Shown here one piece after another: positions 4,437 to 64,000 of a stretch of 64,000 nt of DNA. The DNA is taken from assembly GCA_002449955.1 (NCBI GenBank), contig DJYD01000046.1:1355-65354 (forward strand), in the 5' to 3' direction. Under the pieces are notes generated by a model. It made no database searches. It saw only the letters and a program-made list of their open reading frames with translations, and was not told the origin of the DNA. A program made the translations under genes and the position numbers. This DNA is from Lachnospiraceae bacterium UBA6987 (lineage in GTDB: Bacteria; Bacillota; Clostridia; Lachnospirales; Lachnospiraceae). Each line of letters begins with the position of its first letter. Position 1 is the stretch's first letter.

Positions 4437-4460
4437 ATCCGGAAAAATCAGGAAGGACAT

Positions 4461-42177: not shown

Positions 42178-42203
42178 TTTTACATAGAGAAAAAGGAGAA
42201 GCA

Positions 42204-50793: not shown

Positions 50794-50820
50794 GCACAAA
50801 AAAGGAGGCGTAAGCCTCCT
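50794..50820 (-). terminator. Intrinsic terminator of the gntR-family gene
   Basis: On the minus strand: AGGAGGC-ttac-GCCTCCT followed by TTTTTTGTG, 70 nt after the stop at 50891. Confidence 0.7.
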
Positions 50821-50890: not shown

Positions 50891-51562
50891 TTAATCTTGT
50901 ATTCCAAAAAAAGAACCATTTTCACGTTGACTTAGGATATCTGCACGTGCAAGGGTGAGGTGCTGGCTAACCATTTCCATAGCACCTTTCCCGTCTCGCT
51001 GCTCAAGTTTTTCTACAATATGATAATGCTCGGGCATACTCTGTTCAATACGCGAATGCAGATTAGTGGTCAGATAACGTATTCGTTGTTGCTGATCATT
51101 AATCCGATCCATCCAATTTTTGAGGACCTCATTGCCAGAGAGTTCAATGAGCTTATTATGGAAATTTAAATCTGACTGAAAGTATTGATTAAAATTATGA
51201 TTGTCATAGTTTTTCTGCATCTCATCAACAATGGTTCTCATTTCCTGAAGCTGTGAGACAGAGACAGTTTCTGCAACAGTTTGTGCGGCTAACATTTCAA
51301 TTGCTTTTCTGGCGTCATAAATATCAGATATCAGCTTCCAAGTAATTGGTTTCACTCGAAATTTTCTTCCATCGGCATCTTCTAAAAGGCCCTCGTCTCG
51401 TAGACGAACCAATGCTTCTCGCACGGGGGTACGACTAAAACCATACTTCTCAGAAAGATGCTGAACAATTAAAATTTGACCAGGCATATACTGAAGAGAT
51501 ACTATTTTATCTTTGAGTAATGCATATACTTCGTTTGTCTTAGGATCTTTTGTTTCAACCAT
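50891..51562 (-). CDS. GntR-family (FadR/FCD subfamily) transcriptional regulator
   Basis: Winged-helix motif LSEKYGFSRTPVREALVRLRDEGLL plus an all-helical FCD-like C-terminal domain. The start is set at ATG 51562 (MVETKD), 7 nt after GGGAGG. The track ORF opens at 51607. Confidence 0.88.
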   Translation of the reverse strand: MVETKDPKTNEVYALLKDKIVSLQYMPGQILIVQHLSEKYGFSRTPVREALVRLRDEGLLEDADGRKFRVKPITWKLISDIYDARKAIEMLAAQTVAETVSVSQLQEMRTIVDEMQKNYDNHNFNQYFQSDLNFHNKLIELSGNEVLKNWMDRINDQQQRIRYLTTNLHSRIEQSMPEHYHIVEKLEQRDGKGAMEMVSQHLTLARADILSQRENGSFFGIQD

Positions 51563-51747
51563 TTCAAGTCCTCCCACATCCACGGTATACGTTGTATAGT
51601 ATAGCAAACGTTTTGCGATAAGTGCAATGGATTGTTTTTTGTTTTCGATAGATTTTTGATGCTTTCTCTATAATTGTTCCACTTGTAAGGCACAATGCTA
51701 TTTGATCCAATAAACCTTGATTAGGAATATAAAAGAAAGTTATAAAT

Positions 51748-51814
51748 TTGTCAATAAAAAAATGTATGCAAATTTAAATTTGATATTGCAAAACAATTGT
51801 TGTGGTGCTATAGT
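51748..51814 (+). promoter_or_regulatory. Promoter/operator module A (copy of module B at 62479..62545)
   Basis: TTGCAA (51786-91) - 17 nt - TGcTATAGT (extended -10, 51809-14). A perfect 14-bp palindrome CAAATTTAAATTTG (51769-82) abuts the -35. 57/67 positions are identical, ungapped, to 62479..62545. Confidence 0.65.
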
Positions 51815-52013
51815 AAAAAACGTAAACAGTTATTGAGCTGAAAAAGCATGGATCTTGCCGCGTATGAAGTCGTTACTTGCTGGTGCAAGCGATATGGCGG
51901 TCGAAGGACAAAGATGATAGTCTCAGCTAGAATGAGGAATACCAATATCGAGTCATATTAATACAGTTTTAACTGTTTATTAAAAATGAGCATGTAAGGA
52001 GGAACAATCGAGA

Positions 52014-52673
52014 GTGAATAAGAAGGTGGTTATCTTTCACACAACTTTTGGAACTGTCTCGCCGGTTGAAAAGGCTTTTAAAAGACATTTTCCGGAAGTC
52101 CAGTTGATTTCGTTGGCTGAAGATGGTGTTCTGCCTGAGGTAATTGCCAATAACGGAGTACCGACTCCTGCAATCATAAAGCGATTGATTGGATATGCTG
52201 GAATGGCACAGGAAGTGGGAGCATCGGTATTTGTATGTGTCTGCACTACTCTTGGTATGGCGATGCGGGATGCGCAGAAAGCGCTTTCTATCCCTTTGGT
52301 CATGATTGACGCTGCAATGTTGCGCAAGGCGGTGACACTTGGTAACCGTATAGCATTGTTGATTACTTTTCCTCCTACTGAACGCGCATCGCTGGCTGCC
52401 GCAAAGGAGTTCGCAAAAGAAGCAGGTCGAGAAAATGTTTTGATTGACATTATCACGGTAGAAGGTGCTCGCGAAGCAATGATGCAAGGCGATTTGGCAA
52501 CGCATGACCGATTAATTGCCGAAACCGCCCATAAAGCCGCGCTGGATCATGATGTTATTGCCTTTGCACAGGTCAGCATGTTAGACGCGGCCAATCTTTG
52601 TAGGGATTTGAAAGTTCCGATTTTGACAAGTCTGGAAGATGGTATCAAGCAGTTGGAGGAATATTTGGCATGA
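52014..52673 (+). CDS. Asp/Glu/hydantoin-racemase-superfamily protein
   Basis: 219 aa, GTG start 11 nt after AGGAGG. Two-lobed pattern with VFVCVCTTLG (Cys-containing loop) and a second-lobe VIAFAQVSM. The family call is from general resemblance only. Confidence 0.6.
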   Translation: MNKKVVIFHTTFGTVSPVEKAFKRHFPEVQLISLAEDGVLPEVIANNGVPTPAIIKRLIGYAGMAQEVGASVFVCVCTTLGMAMRDAQKALSIPLVMIDAAMLRKAVTLGNRIALLITFPPTERASLAAAKEFAKEAGRENVLIDIITVEGAREAMMQGDLATHDRLIAETAHKAALDHDVIAFAQVSMLDAANLCRDLKVPILTSLEDGIKQLEEYLA

Positions 52674-53869
52674 GTAGGAAAAAAGACCTGACGGTGACAA
52701 AGGTTGAGGCAATGGTGCTGAGGTATCAGTATGAAAAGGGAATTGCCGATGCACAAAACTTCTTTTCTGCACGTAGTGCTGTGATCGTACAGGTACATAC
52801 TGCTTGCGGGATAACTGGGATCGGAGAATCTGCGTCCTTTGGAGGTCCTGCAGAAACCACGAAGTATATCATTGAACATGAGCTTGCTCCTATTGTTATC
52901 GGAGAAGATGCATCATCAGTCAGTCGGATTTGGCAAAAAATGTTTGACCGGACAAGGCAACATGGACGCAGTGGTGTAATTATGGCAGCCATGAGCGGAA
53001 TTGATATCGCACTGTGGGACGTTGTGGGAAAGCATGCGGACTTGCCTGTTTATAAACTTTTCGGTGGCTATACAGACAAAGTGGTTCCTTATGCTAGCTC
53101 GGGGTTCTATTCTCCTGGTAAAACTGCATCAGATATCGCCGAGGAATGCCGCAGCTACTTCAAACGTGGATTCAAATATGCAAAAATTAAAATTGGACGC
53201 AACCCAGAGATGCTCTTGACGCCTTTGCACAATATGGCTTATGCGGAAGAATGCCAGTATTCTGTGGAAGAGGATTTGGCCCGAGTAGAAGCGTGCTGCA
53301 ATGTGGCAAAAGAATACGGCGCCCGGATCATGGTGGATGCCAACAACACACTGACCACATACAGCGCGATTCAGATCGGAAAGAAGCTGGAAGAACTAAA
53401 TGTCTTCTGGTTTGAAGAGCCGGTTCATGTTGACAATATAAATGGATCTGCAGAGGTTGCCGATGCCCTGTCTATGCCGGTCTCTGGATATGAATCAGAA
53501 ATTGGAGCTTACCGTTTCCGAGAGTTAATTGATCGCAAGGCAGTGGACATTGTTCAGCCTGATGTAATATGGAGCGGCGGCTTTACGGAATGCAAACGAA
53601 TTGCAAGCTATGCAGCCATGCATAATTTACCGTGTAATCCACATGTTTTCTCATCTGGAATCAGCCTGGCAGCCAATTTGCATTTTCTTGCGTCGCTTTC
53701 TAATGGAGGACTGCTTGAAATGGATCAGAATTATTATCCGCTCCGGGACGATCTGTTAACGCAAAAGATCGATATTGCAGAAGACGGATTCGTATATGTT
53801 CCTCAGGGACCCGGATTAGGTGTGGAGCTGAACCCGGATACAGTCGCCAAATATTTGGTTAACTCATAA
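52670..53869 (+). CDS. Enolase-superfamily enzyme, mandelate-racemase subgroup (probable acid-sugar dehydratase)
   Basis: 399 aa. ATGA overlap with the upstream stop. KxK (YAKIKIG), metal ligands D (MVDANN), E (WFEEP) and E (GYESE), and the D...H dyad (IVQPDV, CNPHVF). AMSGIDIALWDVVGK is typical of the MR/MLE N-terminal domain. Confidence 0.85.
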   Translation: MSRKKDLTVTKVEAMVLRYQYEKGIADAQNFFSARSAVIVQVHTACGITGIGESASFGGPAETTKYIIEHELAPIVIGEDASSVSRIWQKMFDRTRQHGRSGVIMAAMSGIDIALWDVVGKHADLPVYKLFGGYTDKVVPYASSGFYSPGKTASDIAEECRSYFKRGFKYAKIKIGRNPEMLLTPLHNMAYAEECQYSVEEDLARVEACCNVAKEYGARIMVDANNTLTTYSAIQIGKKLEELNVFWFEEPVHVDNINGSAEVADALSMPVSGYESEIGAYRFRELIDRKAVDIVQPDVIWSGGFTECKRIASYAAMHNLPCNPHVFSSGISLAANLHFLASLSNGGLLEMDQNYYPLRDDLLTQKIDIAEDGFVYVPQGPGLGVELNPDTVAKYLVNS

Positions 53870-53924
53870 TGTGCATTAAAATATTACTCATAAATGAACT
53901 TAAATGAAGGAGGAAATGTAAAAA

Positions 53925-54944
53925 ATGATTATGAGAACACTTGGCAGAACAGGTATGTCTGTATCTGCATTAGGACTTGGTGGTTTTCAGTTTACTGCTC
54001 AATTTGGTGTATCGCCTCAGGAGGCGGATAATATTATTGATTATGCTGTCGATCATGGGATCAATCTCATTGACACTGCGCAGATTTATGGTGCAGGCGA
54101 AGGTGAAGCCATAATTGGCCGTGCATTGGAACGTCATAAAAACAATAAACCCTATATTTGCGCAAAAGTCGGGCATTTTGAGCATGCTGGCATTCTTGCC
54201 TTCAATCATGACAAAGCGATGCAGGCTTATCAGGATCCTGATGAAATTATGCGGACGCTTAAGCATTCGTTGTGGCTTCTTCGTGAAGATCATTTCGATA
54301 TTATGATGATTCATGAAATCGAGAGGGAATGGAAAGTGAATTTCCCCTCCGGTGACTGTGTCGTCCTTGAAGTTCTGGAAGACCTGAAAAAACAAGGTGT
54401 AGTGAAAGCAATCGGAGCATCTTCATGGGATAGCGTAACCCTCTCGAAGATGATCCGTACCGACCGTATCGATGTGGTATTAATTGCTGGAGGCATTAGT
54501 TTGCTGACAAGGGGAATGTTTGATGAACTGGTGCCTGCAGCCAAAGAACATAATGTTGGAGTTATTGTTGGAGGAATATTAGGCCAGAATACTCCTGGCT
54601 TGGTTGTTAAAAACCGTGATGCCCTTATTCCGTTTAAAGAATCTGATGATACGAAACTGAATGTTTTAGCACATAAGCTGGAAGGCCTCTATGACCTTGC
54701 GGACGAATTAGATCTCAGCATGGTACAGCTTGCGGAAAGATATGCGCTTTCGTTCCCTGATATCCATTCTGTGACTATGGGAGCAAGAGAAGTTGCCCAT
54801 GTCATGGATAATATCCGTTCTGCCGAAATGGGACCGTTACCGGAAGATGCAATTACAAGAATCAATCAGATTCAGGATGCAGGCGATACATTTGATTTCA
54901 GCACAATCGTCCATAAGAGAATGGAAAACCTGGTCAACAAATAA
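53925..54944 (+). CDS. Aldo/keto reductase
   Basis: 339 aa. LGRTGMSVSALGLGG start and catalytic D/Y (IDTAQIYG), K (CAKVG) and H (MMIHE) positions. Confidence 0.88.
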   Translation: MIMRTLGRTGMSVSALGLGGFQFTAQFGVSPQEADNIIDYAVDHGINLIDTAQIYGAGEGEAIIGRALERHKNNKPYICAKVGHFEHAGILAFNHDKAMQAYQDPDEIMRTLKHSLWLLREDHFDIMMIHEIEREWKVNFPSGDCVVLEVLEDLKKQGVVKAIGASSWDSVTLSKMIRTDRIDVVLIAGGISLLTRGMFDELVPAAKEHNVGVIVGGILGQNTPGLVVKNRDALIPFKESDDTKLNVLAHKLEGLYDLADELDLSMVQLAERYALSFPDIHSVTMGAREVAHVMDNIRSAEMGPLPEDAITRINQIQDAGDTFDFSTIVHKRMENLVNK

Positions 54945-54968
54945 GACAGAAGAGAAAGGAAAGTTACT

Positions 54969-55607
54969 ATGAGTGTGAAAACCATTCCAAACGGTCAGCC
55001 GTTTTTTACCATTCGCTACATTGAAAATGAAAAGGATTATCGAATTGAACCCTTTAGCATTCTGATTAATATGGCGATTGAATCTAAAGCGAATATTATG
55101 ATTGACAATATTCCCCAAGCGCCTCTGCACGGAGCAATTGTCGGAAATATTACAATTCCGGAAATTGAGAAGGCTATCCTTATTGAGGACTATGCAAAAT
55201 ATACGAAGGAACCTGATTTCTTCGATAAGGTAAAGGAAACATGGCCTCGCATGTATACGATCCGGCCGGAAGAGCGCTTCCGTGATGCGCAAATGTATGT
55301 GGCACAAGGTGATGCACATATCACACCGCATATTGAACTTGGCGTGTGTTGCGTTATGGGCGCGAACTATTCAACCGGTCTACACAAAACACATCCCAGA
55401 AATATCGATGAATATCATGTGCAGATTGCGGGTATTGGCAAAATGCAGAAGTTTTATGAAAATGATGTCAATACAATGTATCAGGACATTTATATGGCTC
55501 CTGGTATTGTACATGAAACAATCTTTGATGCAAATGGAGTTTATCCGTGGCATCAGTATAAAACTGTAACTGACGTTGTTTTTATGGGCATTAAGATTGA
55601 TCGGTGA
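54969..55607 (+). CDS. Hypothetical protein, possibly cupin-fold
   Basis: 212 aa. His/Glu cluster GLHKTHPRNIDEYHVQIAG followed by APGIVHE resembles the two cupin motifs. GAAAGGAAAG SD-like run upstream. Confidence 0.5.
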   Translation: MSVKTIPNGQPFFTIRYIENEKDYRIEPFSILINMAIESKANIMIDNIPQAPLHGAIVGNITIPEIEKAILIEDYAKYTKEPDFFDKVKETWPRMYTIRPEERFRDAQMYVAQGDAHITPHIELGVCCVMGANYSTGLHKTHPRNIDEYHVQIAGIGKMQKFYENDVNTMYQDIYMAPGIVHETIFDANGVYPWHQYKTVTDVVFMGIKIDR

Positions 55608-55677
55608 GTATCCCTGCATGAGTGCAGGTTCCTCAATTAATACACAAAGCCAACAAAAAACGAAAGGAAAAATCAAA

Positions 55678-56724
55678 ATGAAAAAGACAGTAGCACTTGT
55701 CCTCTCCGCCATTATGTGCCTGACACTCTTCGCAGGCTGCGGCAAGGAAACGCCCTCATCCACTCCTGCAGCAAGTCAGGGATCTGAAGCTCCGACGACA
55801 ACGAAAGCACCATCTGCTGACAAGCTTACCCTTAAGCTTGACTCGGGCTTTACGGCTGGCACAGTGTTGGCTGAGATCCCGCAGGAAATTATTAAGCGGG
55901 TGACGGAAGCCTCCAATGGAACCATCGAAATCCAGGATTTTCCTCAGGATGCTCTGGGAACATCGCCTGAACGTGCACCTATGCTAATGGCGGGTGAACT
56001 TGATATTTCGGTTCATGCCTTGTCAGTCTTTGACCAGTACAATCCGAAGCAGACGATCTTAAATGCATTCTTTATGTTTGAAAGCTGGGATCATTACAAG
56101 GCCTGCCAGGAAACGGATATTTATAAGGGTATCATTTCCGATCTTGAAAAAGCTATCCATGCCACCGTGGTATCTGACGTGTACCTTGGCAGACGCAACA
56201 TGCTCTCCAAGAAGCCGATTGAATCCTTGGAAAGCCTTAAGGGTATGAAGTTCCGCGTTCCCAATGAACCGATGCCGATTGCTGCAATTAAAGCCCTTGG
56301 TGCTGCTGCTACACCTATTGTTGGACCTGAAGTCTATACTGCATTGCAGAATGGCACTGCTGAGGCCACAGAAAGCCCTGCTGCTGAAATTGTGAATCGT
56401 GCATTCTATGAAATTTGTAATTACCTGACCTTTACTGCTCACCAGTATCAGACATACTGCTTCTTCATCTCTGATGCTGCAAAAGCCCGTATGACGGAAG
56501 ATCAGTACAATTTGATTACAAAAGTCATTAAAGAAGTCTGTGATGAGTACACCGTCAAGCAGCAGGCCTCTGAAGCTGAAGCCGAGAAGTTCCTTCGTGA
56601 GAAGTGCACCTGCTTCGATATCGACCTGACTGAAATGCGCAATGCCGTACAGTCCATCTACGATGATTATGATGATGTTTGGGGTGATGGCGCATGGGAA
56701 GCCTTTAAAGCTCTTGCCAAATAA
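55678..56724 (+). CDS. TRAP transporter solute-binding lipoprotein (DctP family)
   Basis: ATG 55678 gives MKKTVALVLSAIMCLTLFAGCG (lipobox). The track ORF opens at 55576. DctP-like blocks (LKGMKFRVPN, ALQNGTAEATESP). Followed by the Q and M subunits. Confidence 0.88.
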   Translation: MKKTVALVLSAIMCLTLFAGCGKETPSSTPAASQGSEAPTTTKAPSADKLTLKLDSGFTAGTVLAEIPQEIIKRVTEASNGTIEIQDFPQDALGTSPERAPMLMAGELDISVHALSVFDQYNPKQTILNAFFMFESWDHYKACQETDIYKGIISDLEKAIHATVVSDVYLGRRNMLSKKPIESLESLKGMKFRVPNEPMPIAAIKALGAAATPIVGPEVYTALQNGTAEATESPAAEIVNRAFYEICNYLTFTAHQYQTYCFFISDAAKARMTEDQYNLITKVIKEVCDEYTVKQQASEAEAEKFLREKCTCFDIDLTEMRNAVQSIYDDYDDVWGDGAWEAFKALAK

Positions 56725-56813
56725 ATTATTTGGTTCTGAGCCTGCGGCGGCAGTGGTAACTGCTGCCGCCGCAGATTTTCTACCAAGCAACTCATTTGCC
56801 AGGAGGTATTAAT

Positions 56814-57368
56814 ATGATGTTAGACAAGTTTCGCCGGTTTGCGAAGCGATGGGAACAAATCGAGCTTTCGATATTAACGACTCTTTTTGCAATCGCTTTT
56901 GTTGTTATCATTATGCAGATCGTGAGCCGGTATATATTTAATAAACCGATCATTTGGACCGATGAATTCTCCTCGGCGTTACAGATGTTCATCGCTTTTT
57001 TGGCAATCGGCTATGGTGTTCTTTCAAAAAAACATATCAGAACCGGAGGCTTTATGGGAAAAGCTCCCAAAGCGGTTAAACACATTATTGCGATCCTCTC
57101 GGATATTCTTTTTATTTTTGTATGCTATAAACTGCTTACCACAACTATTCCGTTTGTGCGTTCTGAATGGAATATTCCGTTTGGAACGTTTCCGCTAGGA
57201 AGAGGCAAAATGTTCATTGCTGTTCCGATCGGTTACGGTACATCGATTATTTACTTATTGATGGAAATTATTGAGCATATACTTGAATGGATCTCTGAGC
57301 AAAAGGTAAAAAGTATAGCAAAAGATCCTGATTCATCCGAAGCGGGAGGTGCAAGTACATGTCACTAA
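56814..57368 (+). CDS. TRAP transporter small permease (DctQ family)
   Basis: 184 aa from ATG 56814 (AGGAGG 7 nt upstream). Four hydrophobic helices. Sits between the P and M subunits. Confidence 0.85.
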   Translation: MMLDKFRRFAKRWEQIELSILTTLFAIAFVVIIMQIVSRYIFNKPIIWTDEFSSALQMFIAFLAIGYGVLSKKHIRTGGFMGKAPKAVKHIIAILSDILFIFVCYKLLTTTIPFVRSEWNIPFGTFPLGRGKMFIAVPIGYGTSIIYLLMEIIEHILEWISEQKVKSIAKDPDSSEAGGASTCH

Positions 57369-58642
57369 ATATAATTTGGTTATTTGTCATGCTGTTTGGC
57401 ATGATGGCCTTGGATATTCCGGTTGCCACTTCAATGCTGGTATCTGCTGTTGTATATATGTTGGCCTTTGATATTCCTATGCTGAGTGCCACAATACAAT
57501 CCATCTGGAGTCCAATGTCTTCTATTCTTCTTTCAACCGGCTTTTTCATCCTGGCAGGAAATCTGATGAATAATGGCGGTGTGACAAAGCGTATTTTTAA
57601 CTTTGCCAATACGTTAGTTGGCTGGGTGCCTGGTGGGTTAGGTCATGCCAATGTAGTGGCAAGTGTTATTTTTGCCGGCATGAGCGGTACTGCCGTTGGT
57701 GATGCGGGTGGCCTCGGACAGATAGAAGTCAATGCTATGACAGACAATGGCTATGATCTTGACTTCTCACTTGCTGTCACCGGCGCCTCGTCGATTCTTG
57801 GACCGATTATCCCGCCTAGCGTCCCTATGGTTATGTATGCGCTGGTTGCTGGCGCTTCGATCGGCAAAATGTTTATGGCAGGTATTATTCCGGGATTGAT
57901 TTCAGCCGCAGGAATGATGGGCCTTGTTTATTATTTTGCAAAAAAGAGAAATTATACCAAACTGAAATTTCCGACAGGAAAAGAGTTTTGGCAAAGCTTC
58001 CGATATGCTTTCTTCCCGCTGCTTGCTCCGATCATTATACTTGTCTCCATCTATAGCGGTGTAATCACTCCGTCTGAATCCGCGGTTATTGCAGCTGTTT
58101 ACGCTATGGTTATTGGTGTCCTCAGCAAAGACCTTAGTATTAAGGCAATTCCCGGGATTTTTAAAGAATCGTTCCAGCTGTTCGGTTCCATTCTGTATAT
58201 ATTTGTTGCTTCAAAATTTTTCGGCTTTGTGGTTGCCTATGAGCAAGTGCCCAATTATCTGGCAAAGTTTGTTGTAGATAATATCGGGGATAGTCCGGCT
58301 CTGTTTTTCCTCTGCGTGATCGTTATCCTGCTTATTTGCGGGTGCATTATGGACAATAATGCGACCATTCTTATTATTACACCGGTATTAGCTCCTGTGG
58401 CGGCATCCCTAGGAATTGATCCTATTCACTTTGGCTTGGTCTTTATTTTCACCATGATGATCGGCGTTGTAACTCCGCCAGTTGGTATCATTCTTTTTGT
58501 GCTGCAGGGCATGTCTGGTATCTCATTTGGCAAACTGTGTCGGGCTATCGCACCGTTTATCATTATGCTGATTGCATGTGCATTGTTGTTTGCTCTGGTA
58601 CCTGCACTGAGCACCTGGCTTCCGAATCTTCTCTTCGGGTGA
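57359..58642 (+). CDS. TRAP transporter large permease (DctM family)
   Basis: 427 aa, about 12 helices. 10-nt overlap with the dctQ-like gene. Typical DctM blocks (FAGMSGTAVGDAGGLG, ILFVLQG). Confidence 0.9.
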   Translation: MSLNIIWLFVMLFGMMALDIPVATSMLVSAVVYMLAFDIPMLSATIQSIWSPMSSILLSTGFFILAGNLMNNGGVTKRIFNFANTLVGWVPGGLGHANVVASVIFAGMSGTAVGDAGGLGQIEVNAMTDNGYDLDFSLAVTGASSILGPIIPPSVPMVMYALVAGASIGKMFMAGIIPGLISAAGMMGLVYYFAKKRNYTKLKFPTGKEFWQSFRYAFFPLLAPIIILVSIYSGVITPSESAVIAAVYAMVIGVLSKDLSIKAIPGIFKESFQLFGSILYIFVASKFFGFVVAYEQVPNYLAKFVVDNIGDSPALFFLCVIVILLICGCIMDNNATILIITPVLAPVAASLGIDPIHFGLVFIFTMMIGVVTPPVGIILFVLQGMSGISFGKLCRAIAPFIIMLIACALLFALVPALSTWLPNLLFG

Positions 58643-58693
58643 CGAAGAAAGAATTGGCGAATACAAATAATTAATAAAGAGAGGTTGACGTAT

Positions 58694-59443
58694 ATGGAAC
58701 AGATTCAAAAAGAGACGGCAATAATAAGAGAACTTGAAAAGTATTCTACTTCCACAATAGCAATTTGCATGCAAAGAGGCAAAGACTACCAAAAACGTGC
58801 ACAACTGTTTGATTCCCGCAAGGACAAATGGTATACAGACGCTTCTTTGCGTGTACAATCCCCTGAATTCGGTCCACGTGCCGGATATGCTGTAACCATG
58901 CGTGTTGGTTTGCCGGTTGAAGGATATGTGCCGCCGACTCGTGCGGAATTGCTGAAACTGATCGATGCATCACCCAAGCCGGTAGTTCTGGTCATGCAGG
59001 TGGATGAACCGGAAGCGATGCGCCTGTCTGACAGTAACTTTGGCGGTCAGTTCGGTTATCTGTGCAAGCAACTAGGGATGGAATCTCTGGTCAGTGACGG
59101 CGCGATCCGTGATATAAAGGAACTGCAGGATTTTGGTATACAGCTTATGATTCCCGGGTCTATCGCGGCAACAGCACCGTCTGTTATCTATGAACTGAAC
59201 GGAACGGTTAATGTAGCCGGCATGGAAGTGTCTGCTGGCGACATTGTTCATATGGATCTCGACGGCGCGGTGAAAATGCCCAGAGAAGCGGCTGAACAAG
59301 TGCTGGCTTGTGCTAAAGTGCTGGAAGAAGAAGAAAAAGCCAGTTATGAGCGTATTGATAAAGCACAAACTCTGGATGACTACCTGCAAGTCTTTTATGA
59401 CATGGGATATGGCCTTAACAAGAAAAAGGATGATGAGCAATAA
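58694..59443 (+). CDS. RraA/HMG-CHA-aldolase-family protein, paralog 1
   Basis: 249 aa from ATG 58694 (GAGAGG upstream). RraA-fold blocks GGQFGYLC..LGMESLVSDGAIRD and AGMEVSAGDIVHMDLDGAV (the GD..v.D.DG motif). Confidence 0.75.
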   Translation: MEQIQKETAIIRELEKYSTSTIAICMQRGKDYQKRAQLFDSRKDKWYTDASLRVQSPEFGPRAGYAVTMRVGLPVEGYVPPTRAELLKLIDASPKPVVLVMQVDEPEAMRLSDSNFGGQFGYLCKQLGMESLVSDGAIRDIKELQDFGIQLMIPGSIAATAPSVIYELNGTVNVAGMEVSAGDIVHMDLDGAVKMPREAAEQVLACAKVLEEEEKASYERIDKAQTLDDYLQVFYDMGYGLNKKKDDEQ

Positions 59444-59491
59444 GGGGAATTGACGAGAATCTATTCGTTGTTACCGGAAAGGATTGTTCAA

Positions 59492-60226
59492 ATGGAAATG
59501 ATTCAAAAAGAGAACGCGGTGATCAGAGAACTGGAAAAATACTCGTCTCATGTTATAGCGAACTGTGTGCAAAAGGGAAACGGAGGCGCAGAGCTGTTTG
59601 ATGTTTTTAAGGATAAATGGTTTACGGATGCCTCATTAAAGGTACAGTTTCCGGAGTTCGGTTCCCGTGCCGGCTATGCGGTAACCATGCGTGTCGGACT
59701 GCCGGTGGAAGGGTATATACCGCCGACCCGTGCCGAATTGTTAAAGCTCATTGACGCTTCTCCTAAGCCGGTGGTTCTGGTGATGCAGGTCGATGAACCG
59801 GAAGCAATGCGGCTTTCTGATAGTAATTTCGGCGGTCAGTTTGGCTATTTATGTCAAAAGCTTGGGATGGAATCTCTGATTTGCGATGGGGCTATCCGTG
59901 ATATAAAAGAGCTGCATGATTTTGGCATACAGCTTATGATTCCCGGATCAATTGCGGCAACAGCACCCTCTGTCATCTATGAACTGAACGGAACGGTTAC
60001 CGTTGGTGGCATGGAGGTTTCCGCCGGTGATGTCGTGTTTATGGATCAGGACGGTGCCTTGAAAATCCAGGCGAAATCAGTGGAGAAAGTTCTGGCCTGT
60101 GCGAAAAAGACAAAAGCTGGGAACATTGATCCGAACAAAAAGTTAACATTGGATGAGTGCCTGAAAATCTTCAGCGCAATGGGGGCACATTCTGAACCGG
60201 ATGAGGAAAACAGCGAACAGCCGTAA
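59492..60226 (+). CDS. RraA/HMG-CHA-aldolase-family protein, paralog 2
   Basis: 244 aa from ATG 59492 (MEMIQKE, parallel to MEQIQKE of paralog 1). The core of 122 residues differs from paralog 1 at only 8 positions. N- and C-terminal tails are divergent. Confidence 0.75.
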   Translation: MEMIQKENAVIRELEKYSSHVIANCVQKGNGGAELFDVFKDKWFTDASLKVQFPEFGSRAGYAVTMRVGLPVEGYIPPTRAELLKLIDASPKPVVLVMQVDEPEAMRLSDSNFGGQFGYLCQKLGMESLICDGAIRDIKELHDFGIQLMIPGSIAATAPSVIYELNGTVTVGGMEVSAGDVVFMDQDGALKIQAKSVEKVLACAKKTKAGNIDPNKKLTLDECLKIFSAMGAHSEPDEENSEQP

Positions 60227-60245
60227 AATGCAGGAGCAATGAAAA

Positions 60246-61079
60246 ATGAAATACAAATTTGCGTTATTAGCTAAGGACATGCATAATTCCGTGCTGCCTC
60301 GCACTTATGATTTCTATGGTAAAAGCCTGGGATATGAAGTTGATTTCAATATCATAAACGTTAATGAAAACGAACTTGCTGAAACTTTGGAAAAGATGAG
60401 ATCAGAGCTTGATGGCTTTACGGTTACAATGCCATATAAAGTTAAAATCATGGAGTTCTGCGATGAATTGGATGTTTCGGCTGAAAAATGCGGATCATCC
60501 AATACGGTATTAGTGAAAGACGGCAAGTTCATTGGCTATAATACCGATGGCTGGGGAATGGTTAAATGTCTTGCGCTGAAAGGATACAGTTTTGAGGGCA
60601 AGAATGTCGTTTTGGTTGGCGCAGGAGGCGTAGCACTGTCCATTGCCTACAATCTTTCCATCAATAAGGTAAAGCATGTGGATGTGCTCAATAAGTTTCC
60701 GAACGAAACAGAGCGTCTCCTGGCCCGCATGGATGACCGTTTTACCGGGTATGACCTGACAGATGAAAATCTGAATAAATGTTGCAAAGGTGCGGATTGC
60801 TTCATTAATGCAAGCATTTTGGGACAGGTGGGCTTTGATGATTGGACGAATCTGGACTTTCTTAAAGCGCTTAATGCTGACGCACTGGTCTATGATGTCA
60901 ACTATTCTAAACCGGGGGCTAATCTTCCCCGAGCAGCTGAAGAACTTGGATTCAGACACTATGTTGGCAAGGCGATGAGCGCCTGTCAGGGGATTCGCGC
61001 GATGGAAATCTGGACAGGAACGGCACCGAGCGATGAAACAGCGCGGGAGTTAGTGGAGCTTATCGAAAATAATCGTTAA
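60246..61079 (+). CDS. Shikimate/quinate dehydrogenase-family oxidoreductase
   Basis: 277 aa. Catalytic TMPYK Lys and YNTDG Asp motifs, and Rossmann GAGGVA. Confidence 0.82.
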   Translation: MKYKFALLAKDMHNSVLPRTYDFYGKSLGYEVDFNIINVNENELAETLEKMRSELDGFTVTMPYKVKIMEFCDELDVSAEKCGSSNTVLVKDGKFIGYNTDGWGMVKCLALKGYSFEGKNVVLVGAGGVALSIAYNLSINKVKHVDVLNKFPNETERLLARMDDRFTGYDLTDENLNKCCKGADCFINASILGQVGFDDWTNLDFLKALNADALVYDVNYSKPGANLPRAAEELGFRHYVGKAMSACQGIRAMEIWTGTAPSDETARELVELIENNR

Positions 61080-61095
61080 CGAGAAGCAATTAAAT

Positions 61096-61131
61096 GGGCG
61101 CGTTGCACAATGAATAGTTGGCAACGCGCCC
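61096..61131. terminator. Bidirectional terminator between convergent genes
   Basis: 11-bp GC-rich inverted repeat GGGCGCGTTGC ... GCAACGCGCCC followed by TTATGTATTT. Lies between the stops at 61079 (+) and 61155 (-). Confidence 0.7.
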
Positions 61132-61154
61132 TTATGTATTTATGAAAAGCATAA

Positions 61155-62384
61155 CTAAAACTTATGAACGCATCTCATTTCTTTGCCCTCTTTTTTGATC
61201 AGGGCAGTGCAACCTCCGCAGGTGGCACACGGCTTTTGGATTTTTCGGCCGCATAATATTTCGTTGGCAAAGCCTGGATCTGCAACCCATTGCCGCCCAA
61301 AACCGGCCAGATCGAACCAATTGTCTGAGATTCCACCTGCAGCGACATTCGCGGCAAAGTCACGCAGCCAGGTAAAGCCGGAAGCGACAACGAGGAGTTC
61401 AGGATACTGTGTTTTGACTTCTTTTGCGGATTGTAGCAGACGTTCTACTCCTTCCAAGGGATGCTCATTAGGAACAGGCCCGCCCATGTCGTAAGGCCGA
61501 ATCATATAAGGCGTTACGGCCCCTATTCCGGCACTGATGTTTAATATGGAAACGCCAAGTGCACGGAGTTCTCCAATCAACCGAAGAGGTTCTGTCATAT
61601 CCTGTACCAACTCTTTGCCGGGACGACACCCCCAACCATAGGGGTAGGGCATCCCGTCGAAAACATTGAGCCGTACGGCAACAGTGATATTACTTTGTTC
61701 ACGGATGCGGCGTACAATATCCTTTACTAACCGGGTTCTGTTTTCATAGGAACCGCCATATTTCCCGGAGCGGTTATAGGCAGAGAATAATTCATTTAGA
61801 AGATAGCCATGACAGCAACGGATGTCAATGGCATCAAAACCGGCGCGCTCTGCAAGAAGAGCGGTTTTTACATAATCGTCGGCCAGTCTGTCTAACGCTT
61901 CGTCGTTGATGATATAACTGTTTTCTTTAGGGATCAAAGGATTTTCAATGGCACATGCAACGCTTTTACTGTATCGGCCGGAATGAGTGAGCTGGGCAAC
62001 AATAAAAGGATTCTCGTGTTCGTGGATAGTGGTTACAAACTGTGCAAATTGTTCTGTGTTTTCCTCAGAGAGACGCATTTGCCGGTTATTAGATTTGCCT
62101 TCATCGTTCACTGAGATTGATTCCATCCAGATGGTACCGACGCCGCCATCAGCTAATGATTGGTAGCGTTCAAATGCCCTTTGAGAAGGACTGCCGTCTT
62201 CATTGGAATCAAAGCCTTCTATAGGTTGAGCAAGCAGACGGTTTCGGATTGTCTTACCATTCACTGAGAGGGGAGTGGATAGCACAGAGGTTTCCTTCGA
62301 AAAGGGGAGGCCTTGCGACAGTTGACCGGCATCTGCTAAAAAATCATTCACGGAAGAGTATGCGTAACGTTGGTGTTTCATCAT
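61155..62384 (-). CDS. Old-yellow-enzyme-family flavin oxidoreductase ending in a CX2CX2CX12C cluster motif
   Basis: 409 aa. OYE TIM-barrel blocks (AQLTHSGR, DAIDIRCCHGYLLNELFS). The C-terminus is KPCATCGGCTALIKKEGKEMRCVHKF*. Confidence 0.82.
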   Translation of the reverse strand: MMKHQRYAYSSVNDFLADAGQLSQGLPFSKETSVLSTPLSVNGKTIRNRLLAQPIEGFDSNEDGSPSQRAFERYQSLADGGVGTIWMESISVNDEGKSNNRQMRLSEENTEQFAQFVTTIHEHENPFIVAQLTHSGRYSKSVACAIENPLIPKENSYIINDEALDRLADDYVKTALLAERAGFDAIDIRCCHGYLLNELFSAYNRSGKYGGSYENRTRLVKDIVRRIREQSNITVAVRLNVFDGMPYPYGWGCRPGKELVQDMTEPLRLIGELRALGVSILNISAGIGAVTPYMIRPYDMGGPVPNEHPLEGVERLLQSAKEVKTQYPELLVVASGFTWLRDFAANVAAGGISDNWFDLAGFGRQWVADPGFANEILCGRKIQKPCATCGGCTALIKKEGKEMRCVHKF

Positions 62385-62478
62385 TGGTTACCGTCCTTGA
62401 TGATGTTGTTTTTAAAGTAAGTCAAATAAGCTGTGAAACGTCAAGTCTATGTATTTAGTCTATGACAAAAAATAAAAA

Positions 62479-62545
62479 TTGTCAATATAAAAATGTATGC
62501 AATTTTAAATTAGATATTGCAAAAAATGAGGTGCAGTGCTATAGT
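62479..62545 (+). promoter_or_regulatory. Promoter/operator module B (copy of module A)
   Basis: TTGCAA (62517-22) - 17 nt - TGcTATAGT (62540-45). Inverted repeat TGCAAT-N12-ATTGCA overlaps the -35. 61 nt upstream of kdgK and divergent from the OYE gene. Confidence 0.65.
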
Positions 62546-62606
62546 GAGAATAACAAATCAACGCTGATCTGCGGATAAACTGTTTAAGGAAAGGAAGGTT
62601 CTATTT

Positions 62607-63629
62607 ATGGGAAAATTGGTATGCTTTGGCGAAATCATGGGGCGCTTTAGCCCGCCTGGTTATTTGAAAACGATTCAGACCAACAGTTTTCAGCTCTCCT
62701 TTGCCGGCGGCGAGGCAAATGTAGCAGTATCCGTTGCCAACTATGGCGGAGATGTTAAATTTGTGACTAAACTTCCGGATAATGATCTATCCCGCAGATG
62801 CATTCGCATACTTCGCGGTTACCGTGTGAATACAGATGATGTTATTTTCGGGGGCGACCGCATGGGGATTTACTTTGTGGAAAAAGGAGCTTCGCAGCGC
62901 CCTTCCAAGATTATTTACGACCGCAAGTATTCCGCAATTTCCCAAGCGGATCCCTCAGAATTCGATTGGGATAAGATTTTTGAAGGTGCAGAATGGTTCC
63001 ATTTTACCGGAATCACCCCTGCTCTTTCTGAAAACATGGTGTGCGCGTGCCGTGACGCGGTAAAAGCAGCCAAGAAAAAAGGTATTACAATCTCCTGTGA
63101 TTTAAATTATCGCAAGAATCTTTGGAGTTCAAAGCGTGCTGGCGAGGTCATGAGTGAATTGATGCCGTATGTGGATGTCTGTATTGCCAATGAAGAAGAT
63201 GCGGAAAAGGTTTTCGGAATCAAGGCGAGTAATACAGATGTGACGTCTGGTACACTTAACGAAGAAGGTTACCGGGAGGTGGCGGACCAACTAATTCAGC
63301 GGTTTGGTGTAAAAAAAGTGGCGATTACGTTGCGTGGAAGCATCTCGGCCAGCGATAACATGTGGTCGGGCATACTGTATGACGGAAAACAGTTCTATCA
63401 TTCCAGGGAATATAAAATCCACTTAGTAGACCGCGTTGGCGGCGGTGATTCTTTCGGCGGTGGCCTTATTTATTCTCTTATGAGAGGCGATGATGACAAG
63501 ACTGCGATTGAATTTGCTGTTGCCGCTTCCTGTCTGAAGCAGGCGACGGAATTTGATTTCAGTGAATCATCTGTGAGTGATGTTGAACTTTTAATGAACG
63601 GTGACGCATCCGGCAGAGTGCGCCGTTAA
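62607..63629 (+). CDS. kdgK: 2-dehydro-3-deoxygluconokinase (PfkB family)
   Basis: 340 aa. N-terminal GEIMGRF...FAGGEANVAVSVA, C-terminal DRVGGGDSFGGGLIY anion hole. Followed directly by the KDPG aldolase gene. Confidence 0.85.
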   Translation: MGKLVCFGEIMGRFSPPGYLKTIQTNSFQLSFAGGEANVAVSVANYGGDVKFVTKLPDNDLSRRCIRILRGYRVNTDDVIFGGDRMGIYFVEKGASQRPSKIIYDRKYSAISQADPSEFDWDKIFEGAEWFHFTGITPALSENMVCACRDAVKAAKKKGITISCDLNYRKNLWSSKRAGEVMSELMPYVDVCIANEEDAEKVFGIKASNTDVTSGTLNEEGYREVADQLIQRFGVKKVAITLRGSISASDNMWSGILYDGKQFYHSREYKIHLVDRVGGGDSFGGGLIYSLMRGDDDKTAIEFAVAASCLKQATEFDFSESSVSDVELLMNGDASGRVRR

Positions 63630-63683
63630 GTAAGTTGGCACGTTAAAAGCTGAAAAAACTCTGCGTGAAAAGAAAGGAATAAT

Positions 63684-64000
63684 ATGACGAGAGAAACCAT
63701 TATTCAGAGAGTTTACGAAGAAAAAGTCATTGCAATAGTGCGGGGGATTGAGAGTGATGCTCTTCTTAAGCTTGCAGACGCACTTTACGAAGGGAATATC
63801 TCAATGATGGAAATAACTTTTGACCAGGCGCGCCCTGAAACATGGGAGAGCACTGCGGCCTCGATCGCTTTCCTACGGGAAAAAGTGGGAGATCATATGG
63901 CGATCGGCGCAGGCACGGTCACATCTCCACATCTTGTGGAACTGGCGATTAAAGCTGGTGCTGAATTTATTATTTCACCGGATACACAAAAGGAGGTCAT
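63684..64000 (+). CDS. eda: 2-dehydro-3-deoxyphosphogluconate (KDPG) / KHG aldolase, truncated by the window end
   Basis: My own translation from ATG 63684 (GAAAGGAA upstream) gives MTRETIIQRVYEEKVIAIVRGIE...MMEITFD...IGAGTVTSP...AEFIISPD. These are the typical Eda blocks. No stop before the window ends. Confidence 0.85.
   Translation, partial: MTRETIIQRVYEEKVIAIVRGIESDALLKLADALYEGNISMMEITFDQARPETWESTAASIAFLREKVGDHMAIGAGTVTSPHLVELAIKAGAEFIISPDTQKEV

Follow-up and report, generated by a model that had tools for sequence, protein, structure and literature searches.

A low-GC, GntR-linked gene island of gut Clostridia joins KdgK and Eda to a candidate undescribed route for a ring-shaped acid

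Users of pectin, alginate and glycosaminoglycans employ the KdgF/KduI/KduD, KdgK and KdgA (Eda) route, in which a metal cupin isomerase and an NAD(P)H reductase act on a six-carbon keto-deoxy acid, and 2-keto-3-deoxygluconate (KDG) is converted via KDPG to pyruvate and glyceraldehyde-3-phosphate (GAP). The 3,6-anhydrogalactose pathways use a ring-opening β-elimination by AHGA cycloisomerase to give KDGal, redox inversion to KDG (or conversion to KDPGal), and then KdgK and Eda. In the fungal reductive D-galacturonate pathway, an aldo/keto reductase (AKR; GAR1), L-galactonate dehydratase (LGD1), an aldolase (LGA1) and a second AKR (GLD1) lead to glycerol. For myo-inositol, a cupin isomerase, a PfkB kinase and an aldolase (IolB, IolC and IolJ) act on a ring-derived six-carbon keto-deoxy acid. 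We compared these systems with an island of 14 genes at the end of a 64,000-nt window, the whole stretch of DNA analyzed. The island shares the endpoint of the first route. Yet it has no KduI or KduD homologue, its cupin belongs to a new small bicupin family, its reductase has a shikimate dehydrogenase (SDH) rather than an SDR fold, and no lyase or hydrolase lies nearby. Nor does that route offer a counterpart for the island's core enolase-superfamily enzyme (ENSF), one-Cys racemase-fold protein or Fe-S Old Yellow Enzyme (OYE). The myo-inositol system differs in that IolG, IolE and IolD homologues are missing from the island, whose kinase is KdgK-type (only 103 bits against the IolC model, cut-off 300) and whose aldolase is Eda-type.

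GC content of the window falls from ∼0.55 to ∼0.44 at ∼50.8 kb and stays low to the window end; values in 2-kb windows are 0.52–0.60 up to 50 kb versus 0.395–0.464 for 50–64 kb. The drop begins at a terminator-like hairpin downstream of gntR (50803..50820, minus strand; 7-bp stem with 5 GC pairs, T-run), which marks the left edge. GC3 is 0.32–0.50 in island genes versus 0.55–0.69 in the three host genes immediately upstream. These contrasts bear out an earlier, sequence-only reading that had called the region a lower-GC island. Near-identical contigs of the locus (L001–L004, L094–L096) were available, and on L094 the low-GC block stops exactly after eda, so the island runs from gntR through eda, ∼13.5 kb. 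The reading had placed it at 50891–64000; the region stands, and the right end moves, as eda continues to ∼64337, ∼340 bp beyond the window. Pfam and NCBIfam matches recovered every gene it listed, in the same order. These data are best explained if a gut Firmicute of ∼55% GC acquired the island as one block from a Clostridial donor of lower GC.

The gene for the GntR/FCD-family regulator (50891..51562, minus strand; Pfam GntR 1.2e-17, FCD 1.2e-28) encodes 223 aa as called on the identical contigs L001–L004, with the open frame reaching 51607. Between gntR and the main operon lies a 66-bp promoter/operator block (51748..51813), with back-to-back divergent promoters predicted on either side of the palindrome CAAATTTAAATTTG: the plus-strand TTGCAA-17-TATAGT serves the main operon and the minus-strand TTGACA-17-TATATT serves gntR. 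A second copy (62479..62544) separates the OYE gene from kdgK-eda, with a predicted plus-strand promoter for kdgK-eda and a minus-strand one for the OYE gene. The two copies match at 44 of 47 core positions, and the 64 kb contain the 24-mer TTGTCAATAWAAAAATGTATGCAA exactly two times, versus zero expected by chance. Because the block precedes both divergent gene pairs, the four transcription units form one regulon, best explained as a GntR-controlled catabolic regulon.

The endpoint is clear from the data. KdgK, a PfkB-type KDG kinase (62607..63629, plus strand), matches the kinase half of NF041633, a KDPG-aldolase/kinase fusion model, at 556 bits and the KDG/KDGal kinase model at 230 bits. The window holds the first 105 codons of eda, for KDPG/KHG aldolase (63684..64000, plus strand); mapping onto L094 gives a full gene for 217 aa, about 63684–64337, at whose end the island ends. 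In a relative (L098), the full-length orthologue of Eda reaches 168 bits and so exceeds the 156-bit cut-off for the eda subfamily.

The same enzyme combination recurs, with reshuffled gene order, in many gut Clostridia: Lachnospiraceae (Blautia, Lactonifactor), Erysipelotrichaceae and uncultured members. Besides Blautia and Lactonifactor, the loci compared comprise a Hadza gut contig, Erysipelotrichaceae and ABC/VOC-type loci, and further metagenome loci. The racemase-fold protein, ENSF, SDH-like enzyme and short OYE form a core found in all relatives together with KdgK and Eda, the latter two wherever the flank is long enough. The linkage is conserved in at least four architectures, spread over several gut Clostridial families. 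What varies is the import system, which is of the TRAP or the LivK-type ABC kind, along with AKRs, the RraA-like aldolase, a bicupin or VOC protein, glycerol kinase and split transketolase. In none of the architectures did a glycoside hydrolase or a polysaccharide lyase turn up within 10 kb. The proposal that the genes act as one unit feeding KdgK/Eda thus gains from the exact gntR–eda island, the repeated 66-bp block and the KdgK/Eda linkage in all rearranged relatives. This co-regulated block imports an organic acid, and its breakdown to pyruvate and GAP is very probable. Upstream of KdgK, every enzyme falls far below all curated NCBIfam equivalog cut-offs, and we found no published description of the set in the full-text literature searched, in keeping with the reading's failure to match it to a known pathway.

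Two core genes open the main operon. The Asp/Glu-racemase-fold gene (52014..52673, plus strand; Pfam Asp_Glu_race 5e-10) is always directly upstream of the ENSF gene across relatives, and in the window its stop overlaps the ENSF start by 4 bp. Orthologue alignments show a single catalytic cysteine, C77, in the motif CVCTTL; in a profile alignment to aspartate racemase 1JFL, the second cysteine position is Val187 (motif AQVSM). Because that cysteine is missing, the protein is probably not a two-base racemase, a point on which the earlier reading changes, and simple epimerization at C5 or C2 is likewise uncertain. The ENSF (52670..53869, plus strand; Pfam MR_MLE_N and MR_MLE_C, MR subgroup) had been credited with all its catalytic residues, and indeed K172-x-K174, D223, E249, E275, D298 and H325 are invariant in 13 orthologues. 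The last five are spaced 26/26/23/27, matching mandelate racemase in its established residue numbering. The best NCBIfam match is archaeal arabinonate dehydratase (282 bits versus a cut-off of 650). Among PDB entries, the best match is 5olc (9e-57), annotated as galactonate dehydratase, which we take to be the Zobellia 3,6-anhydro-D-galactonate cycloisomerase; lower in the list is the 3,6-anhydro-L-galactonate cycloisomerase 5xd7 (3e-36). The 3,6-anhydrogalactose pathways are nonetheless set apart by the modest E-values (roughly the 30% identity level), by island transporters for carboxylates, by the missing aldehyde dehydrogenase, and by the OYE and racemase-fold proteins, which are foreign to them. 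With its relatives at 64% identity or more, the ENSF forms a clade specific to the cluster, and around homologues at 59% identity or less the cluster is absent. It is a predicted acid-sugar-type β-eliminase or dehydratase.

The other two core genes, for the SDH-like enzyme and the OYE, are adjacent in every architecture. The SDH-like oxidoreductase (60246..61079, plus strand) resembles AroE/YdiB in fold, in the catalytic Lys/Asp pair (K65, D102) and in ring and carboxylate contacts: S14, T61, N86, T101, Y215 and Q244 are retained, so that across five diverged orthologues all AroE shikimate contacts tested are kept except S16. It differs in that lost S16, in its best AroE/YdiB equivalog score (156 bits versus a cut-off of 252) and in its linkage to KdgK/Eda. 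The family also includes a sugar-acting member, the 5-ketofructose reductase 7cok, and the predicted site is as compatible with a pyranose analogue as with true shikimate or quinate. The earlier hint of a shikimate-like ring finds some support in the AroE contacts, the sequence being compatible with either a carbocycle or a pyranose sugar acid. The OYE-family flavoprotein (Oxidored_FMN; 61155..62381, minus strand) had been described as truncated. We reject this: five orthologues (47–64% identity) are all 409–422 aa long and all terminate just past a conserved CxxCxxC...C, marking a full-length short form. Its comparison group comprises BilR and the 2-enoate and 2,4-dienoyl-CoA reductases, which combine an OYE barrel with a [4Fe-4S] cluster. 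Like short-form bilirubin reductase BilR, it carries the C-terminal [4Fe-4S] Cys motif behind an FMN TIM barrel and lacks a C-terminal FAD/NAD(P) domain. Unlike BilR, it scores just 92.6 bits against the BilR N-domain model (cut-off 425), carries the active-site motif R-C-C-H-G-Y (R-x-x-H-G-Y in place of H-x-x-H-G-Y), and sits in a carbohydrate-type operon. Carbohydrate-type enzymes here are the AKR and, in relatives, a DkgA-like AKR (254 bits), a GlpK-subfamily kinase (565 bits versus a cut-off of 498; found in the Lactonifactor and Hadza loci) and the split transketolase.

Uptake is assigned to a TRAP system: DctP (55678..56724; Pfam 2.6e-50), the small membrane subunit DctQ (56814..57368; 7.7e-22) and the large subunit DctM (57359..58642; 6.5e-107), all on the plus strand. 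DctP is a lipoprotein (lipobox LFAGC) whose KFRVP motif contains the conserved carboxylate-binding Arg. Among solved structures, SiaP sialic-acid binders come closest to it (E about 1e-33), followed by other DctP-family TRAP binding proteins, several of them presumably with an aldonate or uronate as ligand. The 339-aa AKR (53925..54944, plus strand; Pfam 2e-46, NCBIfam matches all far below cut-off) is accessory and found only in TRAP-type clusters. What had been a cupin-like unknown (54969..55607, plus strand; 212 aa, no Pfam match) proved to be a metal-binding bicupin: its AlphaFold model (pLDDT 96.3) has bicupins as Foldseek neighbours, and H139, H142, E148, H150 and H195 are invariant and form a predicted His/Glu metal site. 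The family is very small (135 representatives among 1.84 billion); distant relatives give marginal matches to the AUDH_Cupin model, and the structure shows no special similarity to KduI. The bicupin is accessory and a predicted isomerase or tautomerase.

Fold assignments, conserved catalytic residues, gene linkage, the co-regulation signal and the KDG/KDPG endpoint come from the data themselves, whereas we infer what the substrate is, in which order the steps run and exactly which reaction each upstream enzyme performs. Our preferred reading, to which we give a little less than an even chance, is that a ring acid of shikimate-like shape, most likely a sugar acid of the hexuronate type, is degraded by an undescribed route that ends with KDG and then KDPG. 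In its favour we count the bounded island with its repeated operator, the conserved linkage, the KdgK/Eda scores, the intact ENSF residues and the nearest ENSF structures, the SDH-like contacts and sugar-acting SDH relative, the OYE and RraA-like motifs, the bicupin metal site, the carbohydrate-type enzymes and the solved relatives of DctP. The lipoprotein-anchored TRAP system would take up a carboxylic acid, which the four core enzymes would turn into a 2-keto-3-deoxy-hexonate. The one-Cys racemase-fold protein may set or isomerize the carbon adjoining the carboxylate; at that carbon the ENSF would abstract the α-proton and then eliminate a β-oxygen, as a dehydration or ring-opening. The SDH-like enzyme would carry out NAD(P)-linked redox of a hydroxyl or ketone on a six-membered ring bearing a carboxylate, and the short FMN/[4Fe-4S] OYE would reduce an activated C=C, presumably with electrons of the ferredoxin or flavodoxin type. 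KdgK would then convert KDG to KDPG, and Eda would cleave KDPG to pyruvate and GAP. The favoured substrate is a pyranose sugar acid that resembles shikimate in shape, that is, a hexuronate or a 4-substituted or 4,5-unsaturated derivative. With a uronate, the racemase-fold protein and ENSF would yield a 4,5-unsaturated uronate (equivalently 5-keto-4-deoxyuronate), the bicupin (or, in ABC-type clusters, a VOC metalloprotein) might catalyze keto-enol or aldose-ketose isomerization, and the SDH-like enzyme would release KDG. A non-phosphorylative side branch in TRAP-type clusters could lead through the RraA-like class II aldolase(s) and AKR to pyruvate and glyceraldehyde, then glycerol, with glycerol kinase added in relatives. 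The OYE is the weakest part of this uronate version: it is core, yet the plain path from uronate via unsaturated uronate/DKI and DKII to KDG needs no C=C reduction, and hence the substrate or step order would differ from that proposed. Also counting against this reading are the one-Cys racemase-fold protein, the SDH-like site that suits shikimate or quinate equally well, the low equivalog scores of the upstream enzymes, the lack of nearby glycoside hydrolases and polysaccharide lyases, and a bicupin with no special likeness to KduI.

A hydroaromatic pathway would give the OYE a task, and we consider it unlikely. Quinate, shikimate or 3-dehydroshikimate from a plant diet would pass through the SDH-like enzyme to 3-dehydroshikimate, the Fe-S OYE would reduce the ring C=C, and the other enzymes would process or open the ring, by a reductive route whose biochemistry has been described in lactobacilli and which is inferred to operate in gut flora. 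The near-complete set of shikimate contacts agrees with this, as does an OYE whose substrate-anchoring pair includes Arg, suited to an enoate. Structural neighbours of the bicupin include BacB and AerE, which isomerize cyclohexadienyl acids. LivK-type ABC binding proteins, VOC and Amidohydro_2 proteins, carried by some relatives, are typical of aromatic or hydroaromatic acid catabolism as well, which counts against a sugar acid, and RraA (LigK-like) proteins are also known in aromatic-acid pathways. Blautia and Lactonifactor, among the hosts, are plant-phenolic converters. Reduction of quinate and shikimate is an orphan activity of gut and lactic-acid bacteria, and no gene assignment for it was found in the full-text literature searched. 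However, quinate, shikimate and their reduced forms lack the α-H/β-leaving-group pair for an MR-type ENSF. There is also no plausible ring-opening to a phosphorylatable 2-keto-3-deoxy-hexonate, yet KdgK and Eda are linked everywhere and share the operator. Dehydroquinase, dehydroshikimate dehydratase and a CoA-activating enzyme are absent from the island.

Another class of sugar acid is, in our estimate, similarly improbable as the substrate. In a fungal-like reductive aldonate route, the AKR would take a uronate to L-galactonate or L-gulonate, followed by C2 epimerization, ENSF dehydration and stereo-inversion to KDG. Alternatively, the substrate could be a reductone or a ketoaldonate (ascorbate, 2,3-diketogulonate or 2,5-diketogluconate), or else Kdo or another 3-deoxy-2-ulosonic acid, a possible ligand of SiaP-like proteins; the SiaP-like DctP fits this last option. 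Arabinonate dehydratase is the best ENSF family match, and arabinonate shares its C2–C4 configuration with L-galactonate and L-fuconate. TRAP-type relatives hold the fungal kinds of parts: two AKRs (one DkgA-like), an ENSF dehydratase, an RraA-type pyruvate-forming aldolase and a GlpK-type kinase at the glycerol level parallel GAR1, LGD1, LGA1 and GLD1. C=C reduction of an enediol would yield exactly the α-H/β-OH pair that an ENSF dehydratase needs. On the other hand, the island aldolase is RraA-fold and the fungal one DHDPS-fold; KdgK/Eda and the SDH-like, OYE and racemase-fold proteins have no fungal counterpart; and ABC/VOC-type clusters keep the core without AKRs or an RraA-like gene. An SDH-fold enzyme with ring-carboxylate contacts is unexpected for open-chain aldonates, and the window contains no lactonase.

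That the island is a mosaic, with a TRAP/dehydratase operon, an unrelated SDH-like/OYE redox pair and housekeeping kdgK-eda merely adjacent, is suggested by the opposite strand of the OYE gene and by RraA-like, AKR and cupin genes dispensable in some relatives, but is very improbable, since the boundaries enclose exactly the gntR–eda genes, one operator/promoter block precedes both divergent pairs, and the core four stay with KdgK/Eda through rearrangements, transporter swaps and divergence to 47–72% protein identity.

The RraA-like genes (58694..59443 and 59492..60226, plus strand) are tandem paralogues that retain the Arg-Asp motif (DGAIRD) of HMG/CHA-type class II aldolases/decarboxylases. 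They share 75% amino-acid identity, and 77% DNA identity over 300 nt, versus 51% with the single Blautia copy; on these identities, the duplication is specific to this lineage. It had been offered as a clue to the pathway, and carries little weight because the RraA-like genes are accessory and, like the AKR and cupin genes, missing from ABC/VOC versions. Within the same operon, a strong hairpin (56742..56774, plus strand; 15-bp stem, 11 GC pairs) lies between dctP and dctQ.

The right end of the window is occupied by a block of low GC content that runs from gntR to eda. In 2-kb windows, GC stayed within 0.52-0.60 over the first 50 kb and within 0.395-0.464 over the remainder of the window; GC3 was 0.32-0.50 for the island genes, compared to 0.55-0.69 for the three host genes immediately upstream. 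Pfam and NCBIfam searches across the island upheld the gene list and gene order of the sequence-only reading: a GntR/FCD regulator (minus strand), an Asp_Glu_race-fold protein, an MR_MLE enolase-superfamily enzyme (ENSF), an aldo/keto reductase (AKR), a 212-aa protein with no Pfam match, DctP, DctQ, DctM, two RraA-like proteins, a shikimate-dehydrogenase-family (SDH-like) enzyme, a short Oxidored_FMN flavoprotein (OYE; minus strand), the PfkB-type kinase KdgK, and the start of Eda, within which the window ends. In L094, a 395-kb metagenome contig carrying the same locus, eda encodes 217 aa, the next genes are a DUF6273 gene and then clpB, and GC rises from 0.41-0.48 to 0.56-0.61 immediately past eda. 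This jump indicates that the foreign block, about 13.5 kb long, begins with gntR and ends precisely with eda. We looked for an integrase, a tRNA and flanking or direct repeats at the island borders and saw none. The nearest orthologues beyond this species (89% identity for ENSF, 83% for the 212-aa protein) came from MAGs labelled Lachnospiraceae or Oscillibacter. Outside the island, the window is Firmicute chromosome, with a PASTA kinase, a Firmicute-type FBPase, a topoisomerase and a TQ/SpaA surface protein. The last of these (42144-47624), just upstream of the island, has 1826 aa, with seven T-Q ester-bond domains plus SpaA-type domains; its gene is followed by an ABC ATPase gene, a SufBD-like gene and a MatE gene. 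Elsewhere in the window lie three large ORFs without a Pfam domain: 7753-9780 (plus strand, 675 aa), 9846-12824 (minus strand, 992 aa) and 13743-16484 (minus strand, 913 aa). An N-terminal zinc ribbon was the sole domain match of the 992-aa ORF.

Two intergenic regions of the island, gntR/operon (51748-51813) and OYE gene/kdgK (62479-62544), have a 66-bp block in common, with 44 of 47 core positions identical between the copies. A 24-mer from this block occurs exactly twice in the 64 kb, where none would be expected by chance. Each block contains back-to-back predicted promoters, TTGCAA-17-TATAGT with an extended -10 TG on the plus strand and TTGACA-17-TATATT or TAGACT on the minus strand, and between them sits the palindrome CAAATTTAAATTTG. 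Such a doubled arrangement is the signature of a single repressor over four transcription units, so gntR, the 11-gene operon, the OYE gene and kdgK-eda are probably under common control, and the GntR protein presumably binds the palindrome. A leader of ∼200 nt, partly GC-richer, extends from the predicted -10 box to the first operon gene (51815-52013). An Rfam scan of the island, leader included, at E values up to 1 returned no RNA family. Between dctP and dctQ (56742-56774) lies a very stable hairpin, with a 15-bp stem and 11 GC pairs, which could favour binding protein over membrane subunits by affecting how the mRNA is processed or how stable it is, or by terminating part of the transcripts.

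To follow the cluster in other genomes, we used ENSF as the query. An exact-protein look-up of the window ENSF gave no match, and a 99% identical relative was taken as a substitute. Homologues of at least 64% identity lay in a related cluster every time, whereas those of 59% or less, from Christensenellales, Alicyclobacillus, Chloroflexota and Proteobacteria, did not. An alignment scan of the genome collection, which gave at least 600 pattern matches, mostly of ≤50% identity and without the cluster, served as a negative control. Related clusters fell into two architecture families. Type A, found in the window, Blautia producta, Lactonifactor longoviformis, Lachnospiraceae MAGs and a Hadza gut contig, has a LacI or GntR regulator, a DkgA-like AKR plus a 338-aa AKR, the 212-aa protein, DctPQM, the racemase-fold protein, ENSF, one RraA-like protein, OYE, SDH-like, KdgK and Eda, together with a GlpK-subfamily kinase (565 bits versus a cut-off of 498), a split transketolase and, frequently, a 398-aa PMI-like protein; in the Hadza contig, a LivK-type ABC system and an Amidohydro_2 gene replace DctPQM. 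Type B, carried by Erysipelotrichaceae and others, combines GntR, a five-gene LivK-type ABC transporter, KdgK, a second KdgK, Eda, OYE, SDH-like, the racemase-fold protein (often with a second paralogue), ENSF, and a VOC/glyoxalase-fold protein of 133-143 aa with a His-Glu-His-Glu metal tetrad. For Blautia and Lactonifactor we predicted a divergent kdgK-eda upstream of lacI, and the Lactonifactor genome bore this out. Invariant across architectures were the adjacency of OYE and SDH-like, the adjacency of the racemase-fold protein and ENSF (their genes overlap by 4 bp in the window), and the linkage of this core of four to KdgK and Eda. Since orthologues are just 47-72% identical, the linkage has been kept by selection rather than by recent descent.

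ENSF retains a full set of catalytic residues, as the sequence-only reading had proposed: K172, K174, D223, E249, E275, D298 and H325 do not vary among 13 orthologues. The protein has both Pfam domains, along with the KxK of strand 2, the Asp/Glu/Glu metal ligands and the Asp-His dyad of strands 6/7 that characterize the MR subgroup. All 13 NCBIfam matches fell below cut-off, the best being the archaeal arabinonate dehydratase AraD_Arch (282 bits versus 650), and none identified ENSF as an AraD, DgoD, ManD, TalrD/GalrD, RhamD or GlucD equivalog. By annotation, the structures closest to it are galactonate dehydratase or uncharacterized MR/MLE enzymes; 3,6-anhydrogalactonate cycloisomerase ranks lower. 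Its partner belongs to the racemase fold by Pfam (40 bits versus a cut-off of 31). The first catalytic Cys (C77, in the motif C[VM]CTTL) is kept in every orthologue, and the second is absent, replaced by Val187 in the register of aspartate racemase 1JFL. With Val at this position, the protein is unlikely to be a classical two-base Asp/Glu/hydantoin racemase. It may instead be a one-base tautomerase/isomerase or a stereoselective protonating enzyme, or may use another second base. An AlphaFold model made without an alignment had a pLDDT of 44.7, too low for use.

The SDH-like enzyme has the catalytic Lys65/Asp102 pair and the substrate contacts of the shikimate/quinate dehydrogenase family, S16 excepted. 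In five orthologues, K65, D102, S14, T61, N86, T101, Y215 and Q244 are conserved, and only S16 varies, being L, N or T; the numbering is that of E. coli AroE. Scores fell short of the AroE and YdiB equivalogs (at best 156 bits versus 252; YdiB, 85 versus 349 and 65 versus 515). The family also contains a sugar-acting member, 5-ketofructose reductase (7cok). OYE has the FMN TIM barrel of the OYE ene-reductases and the Tyr that serves these as proton donor. It had been read as truncated, a view that the orthologues contradict: the protein has 409 aa, its orthologues have 413-422 aa, and all of them terminate just beyond a CxxCxxC...C motif, in the window 8 residues past the last cluster Cys. Lacking a C-terminal FAD/NAD(P)H domain, it is not a 2-enoate reductase, a 2,4-dienoyl-CoA reductase or a long-form BilR (∼640-670 aa), and is a natural short FMN/[4Fe-4S] form with no nicotinamide domain. 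In its motif D-I-R-C-C-H-G-Y, Arg replaces the first His of the H-x-x-H/N anchoring pair in 5/5 orthologues (R-C/A-C-H-G-Y, versus H-A-A-H-G-Y in YqjM). This Arg suggests that the substrate of OYE is a carboxylate-activated alkene.

Import and exit are more conventional. DctP, DctQ and DctM were each recognized by Pfam, and TRAP_S1 scored 119.6 bits versus a cut-off of 50. DctP is a lipoprotein whose KFRVP motif carries the TRAP-type Arg, presumably the residue that binds the substrate carboxylate; its nearest relatives are SiaP sialic-acid binders, followed by other DctP-family binding proteins. At the other end, a PfkB KDG kinase gene adjoins a class I KDPG aldolase gene, the predicted end of a semi-phosphorylative Entner-Doudoroff route.

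Of the accessory proteins, the duplicated RraA-like pair (58685-60226) had been listed with the genes that acid-sugar catabolism leaves unexplained. The two copies represent a tandem duplication confined to this lineage. Both copies, and that of Blautia, keep DGAIRD, the Arg-Asp motif of metal-dependent pyruvate aldolases/decarboxylases; scores against the HMG/CHA aldolase - oxaloacetate decarboxylase equivalogs were 41-48 bits versus cut-offs of 179 and 304. The pair also matches the C-terminal part (profile positions ∼372-478) of the 501-aa PRK12764 model, named 'fumarylacetoacetate hydrolase family protein'. FAH-RraA fusions thus exist, hinting at a functional link of the two folds in keto-acid metabolism. 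The 212-aa protein, read earlier as cupin-like, is predicted to adopt a bicupin fold (pLDDT 96), and its structural neighbours support that reading: Foldseek returned BacB, AerE, OxdC and cupin sugar isomerases, with low TM-scores. There was no match in Pfam, NCBIfam or a PDB sequence search. Pfam and NCBIfam gave no sequence similarity to KduI, which was also absent from the best 50 Foldseek matches; remote relatives touch the AUDH cupin model below threshold. The family is tiny (135 representatives at E 1e-3 or better among 1.84 billion proteins), with invariant His139, His142, Glu148, His150 and His195. One search match, P0159, a protein of 3622 aa, has 37 stretches resembling bicupin residues ∼18-103, in the N-terminal half, so the half-domain is also strung together in tandem as a module of a giant protein.

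These components indicate the frame of a pathway, in a model whose chances we rate as slightly short of even. The transporter would bring a carboxylate in, the racemase-fold/ENSF pair would perform chemistry beside the carboxylate, the SDH-like/OYE pair would carry out ring redox, and the product would leave as KDG, to be converted via KDPG to pyruvate and GAP. As for the substrate class, we tentatively favour a shikimate-mimicking pyranose sugar acid. In a hexuronate, C5 bears an alpha-H and C4 a beta-OH or OR, and beta-elimination would give a 4,5-unsaturated uronate. As the ring-oxygen analogue of shikimate, this compound would fit the SDH-like site; after isomerization by the bicupin or VOC protein, the SDH-like enzyme would yield KDG. 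In type A clusters, the RraA-like aldolase, AKRs and glycerol kinase, which resemble the fungal reductive galacturonate pathway, could form a non-phosphorylative branch.

This sugar-acid model is weakest where OYE is concerned. Turning unsaturated uronate into KDG by the canonical route requires no C=C reduction. A putative ene-reductase in the core argues for an alkene that cannot tautomerize away. Such an alkene is the chief argument for a carbocyclic quinate/shikimate pathway, which nonetheless leaves the MR-type ENSF without a substrate and offers no way to the substrate of KdgK/Eda; we consider this pathway unlikely. An aldonate, ketoaldonate, reductone or ulosonic acid as substrate seems to us similarly improbable. 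As an explanation of the island, a mosaic of unrelated units can be all but excluded. Several further routes were drawn up on paper (retro-aldol opening of dehydroquinate, a comenic-acid-type pyranone, anhydro-aldonates, glucosaminate and aldarates), and each either left some core enzymes unused or failed to reach KDG. An atypical L-threonate dehydrogenase, a candidate from the literature, proved unrelated to the cluster.

The earlier impression that the enzyme set matches no known pathway held up: no curated equivalog model scored above cut-off for the upstream enzymes, and we found no description of the cluster as a whole in the full-text literature, within incomplete coverage. Nucleotide searches found nothing that matches it among E. 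coli genomes or in the plasmid collection. The upstream combination differs from the KduI/KduD and UxaC-type isomerase routes, from fungal reductive uronate routes, from the anhydrogalactose pathway, and from inositol and known hydroaromatic catabolism. All the folds are already known and the KdgK/Eda end is ordinary; what appears to be new is the combination of upstream enzymes, which includes several orphan enzyme clades. It is possible, if doubtful, that the core four constitute a new route for a common diet- or host-derived ring acid in abundant gut Clostridia. This could be the long-orphan microbial quinate or shikimate pathway, or a 'uronate dehydratase' pathway that needs no lyase and consumes glucuronate, iduronate, galacturonate or 4-O-methylglucuronate. 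If so, at least three enzyme activities would lack a characterized precedent, in addition to the new bicupin family, and the KDG/KDPG node would gain another entry point. The cluster is widespread, in human-gut Lachnospiraceae, Oscillospiraceae relatives and Erysipelotrichaceae, and in Hadza and other gut metagenomes, and mobile enough to show up as an island of discordant GC. Were its substrate known, several orphan enzyme clades would gain a function, and the use of a diet- or host-derived acid would be explained, possibly including cross-feeding on uronates or plant hydroaromatics. The cluster lends itself well to ligand screening of its binding proteins and to reconstitution in vitro, and the natural one-Cys racemase-fold enzyme and the domain-less Fe-S OYE are of interest for biocatalysis.

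Individual loci showed features of their own. In Blautia producta (L006, CP176638.1), a reverse-transcriptase gene (RVT_1, 624 aa) on the opposite strand (2593-4467), probably a group II intron, splits the 338-aa AKR gene, which is uninterrupted in other Blautia contigs. Two near-identical metagenome contigs of the window's own species (L002, 11496-12105; L003, 11352-13497) have the bicupin, dctP and dctQ genes in fragments; the fragments may stem from frameshifts, whether through misassembly or through transporter decay in some strains. Downstream of the Blautia cluster (L005/L006, ∼18400-21180) are an MFS transporter gene and a gene of the URO-D family, to which the methyltransferases of O-demethylase systems belong; a link to methoxy-aromatic metabolism may be coincidental. 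Beyond the cluster clade, the closest ENSF homologue (57% identity), in a Christensenellales MAG (L090, 7384-11182), lies in another, likewise unassigned context, beside a second ENSF paralogue, several CoA-transferases and a sugar-type ABC transporter.
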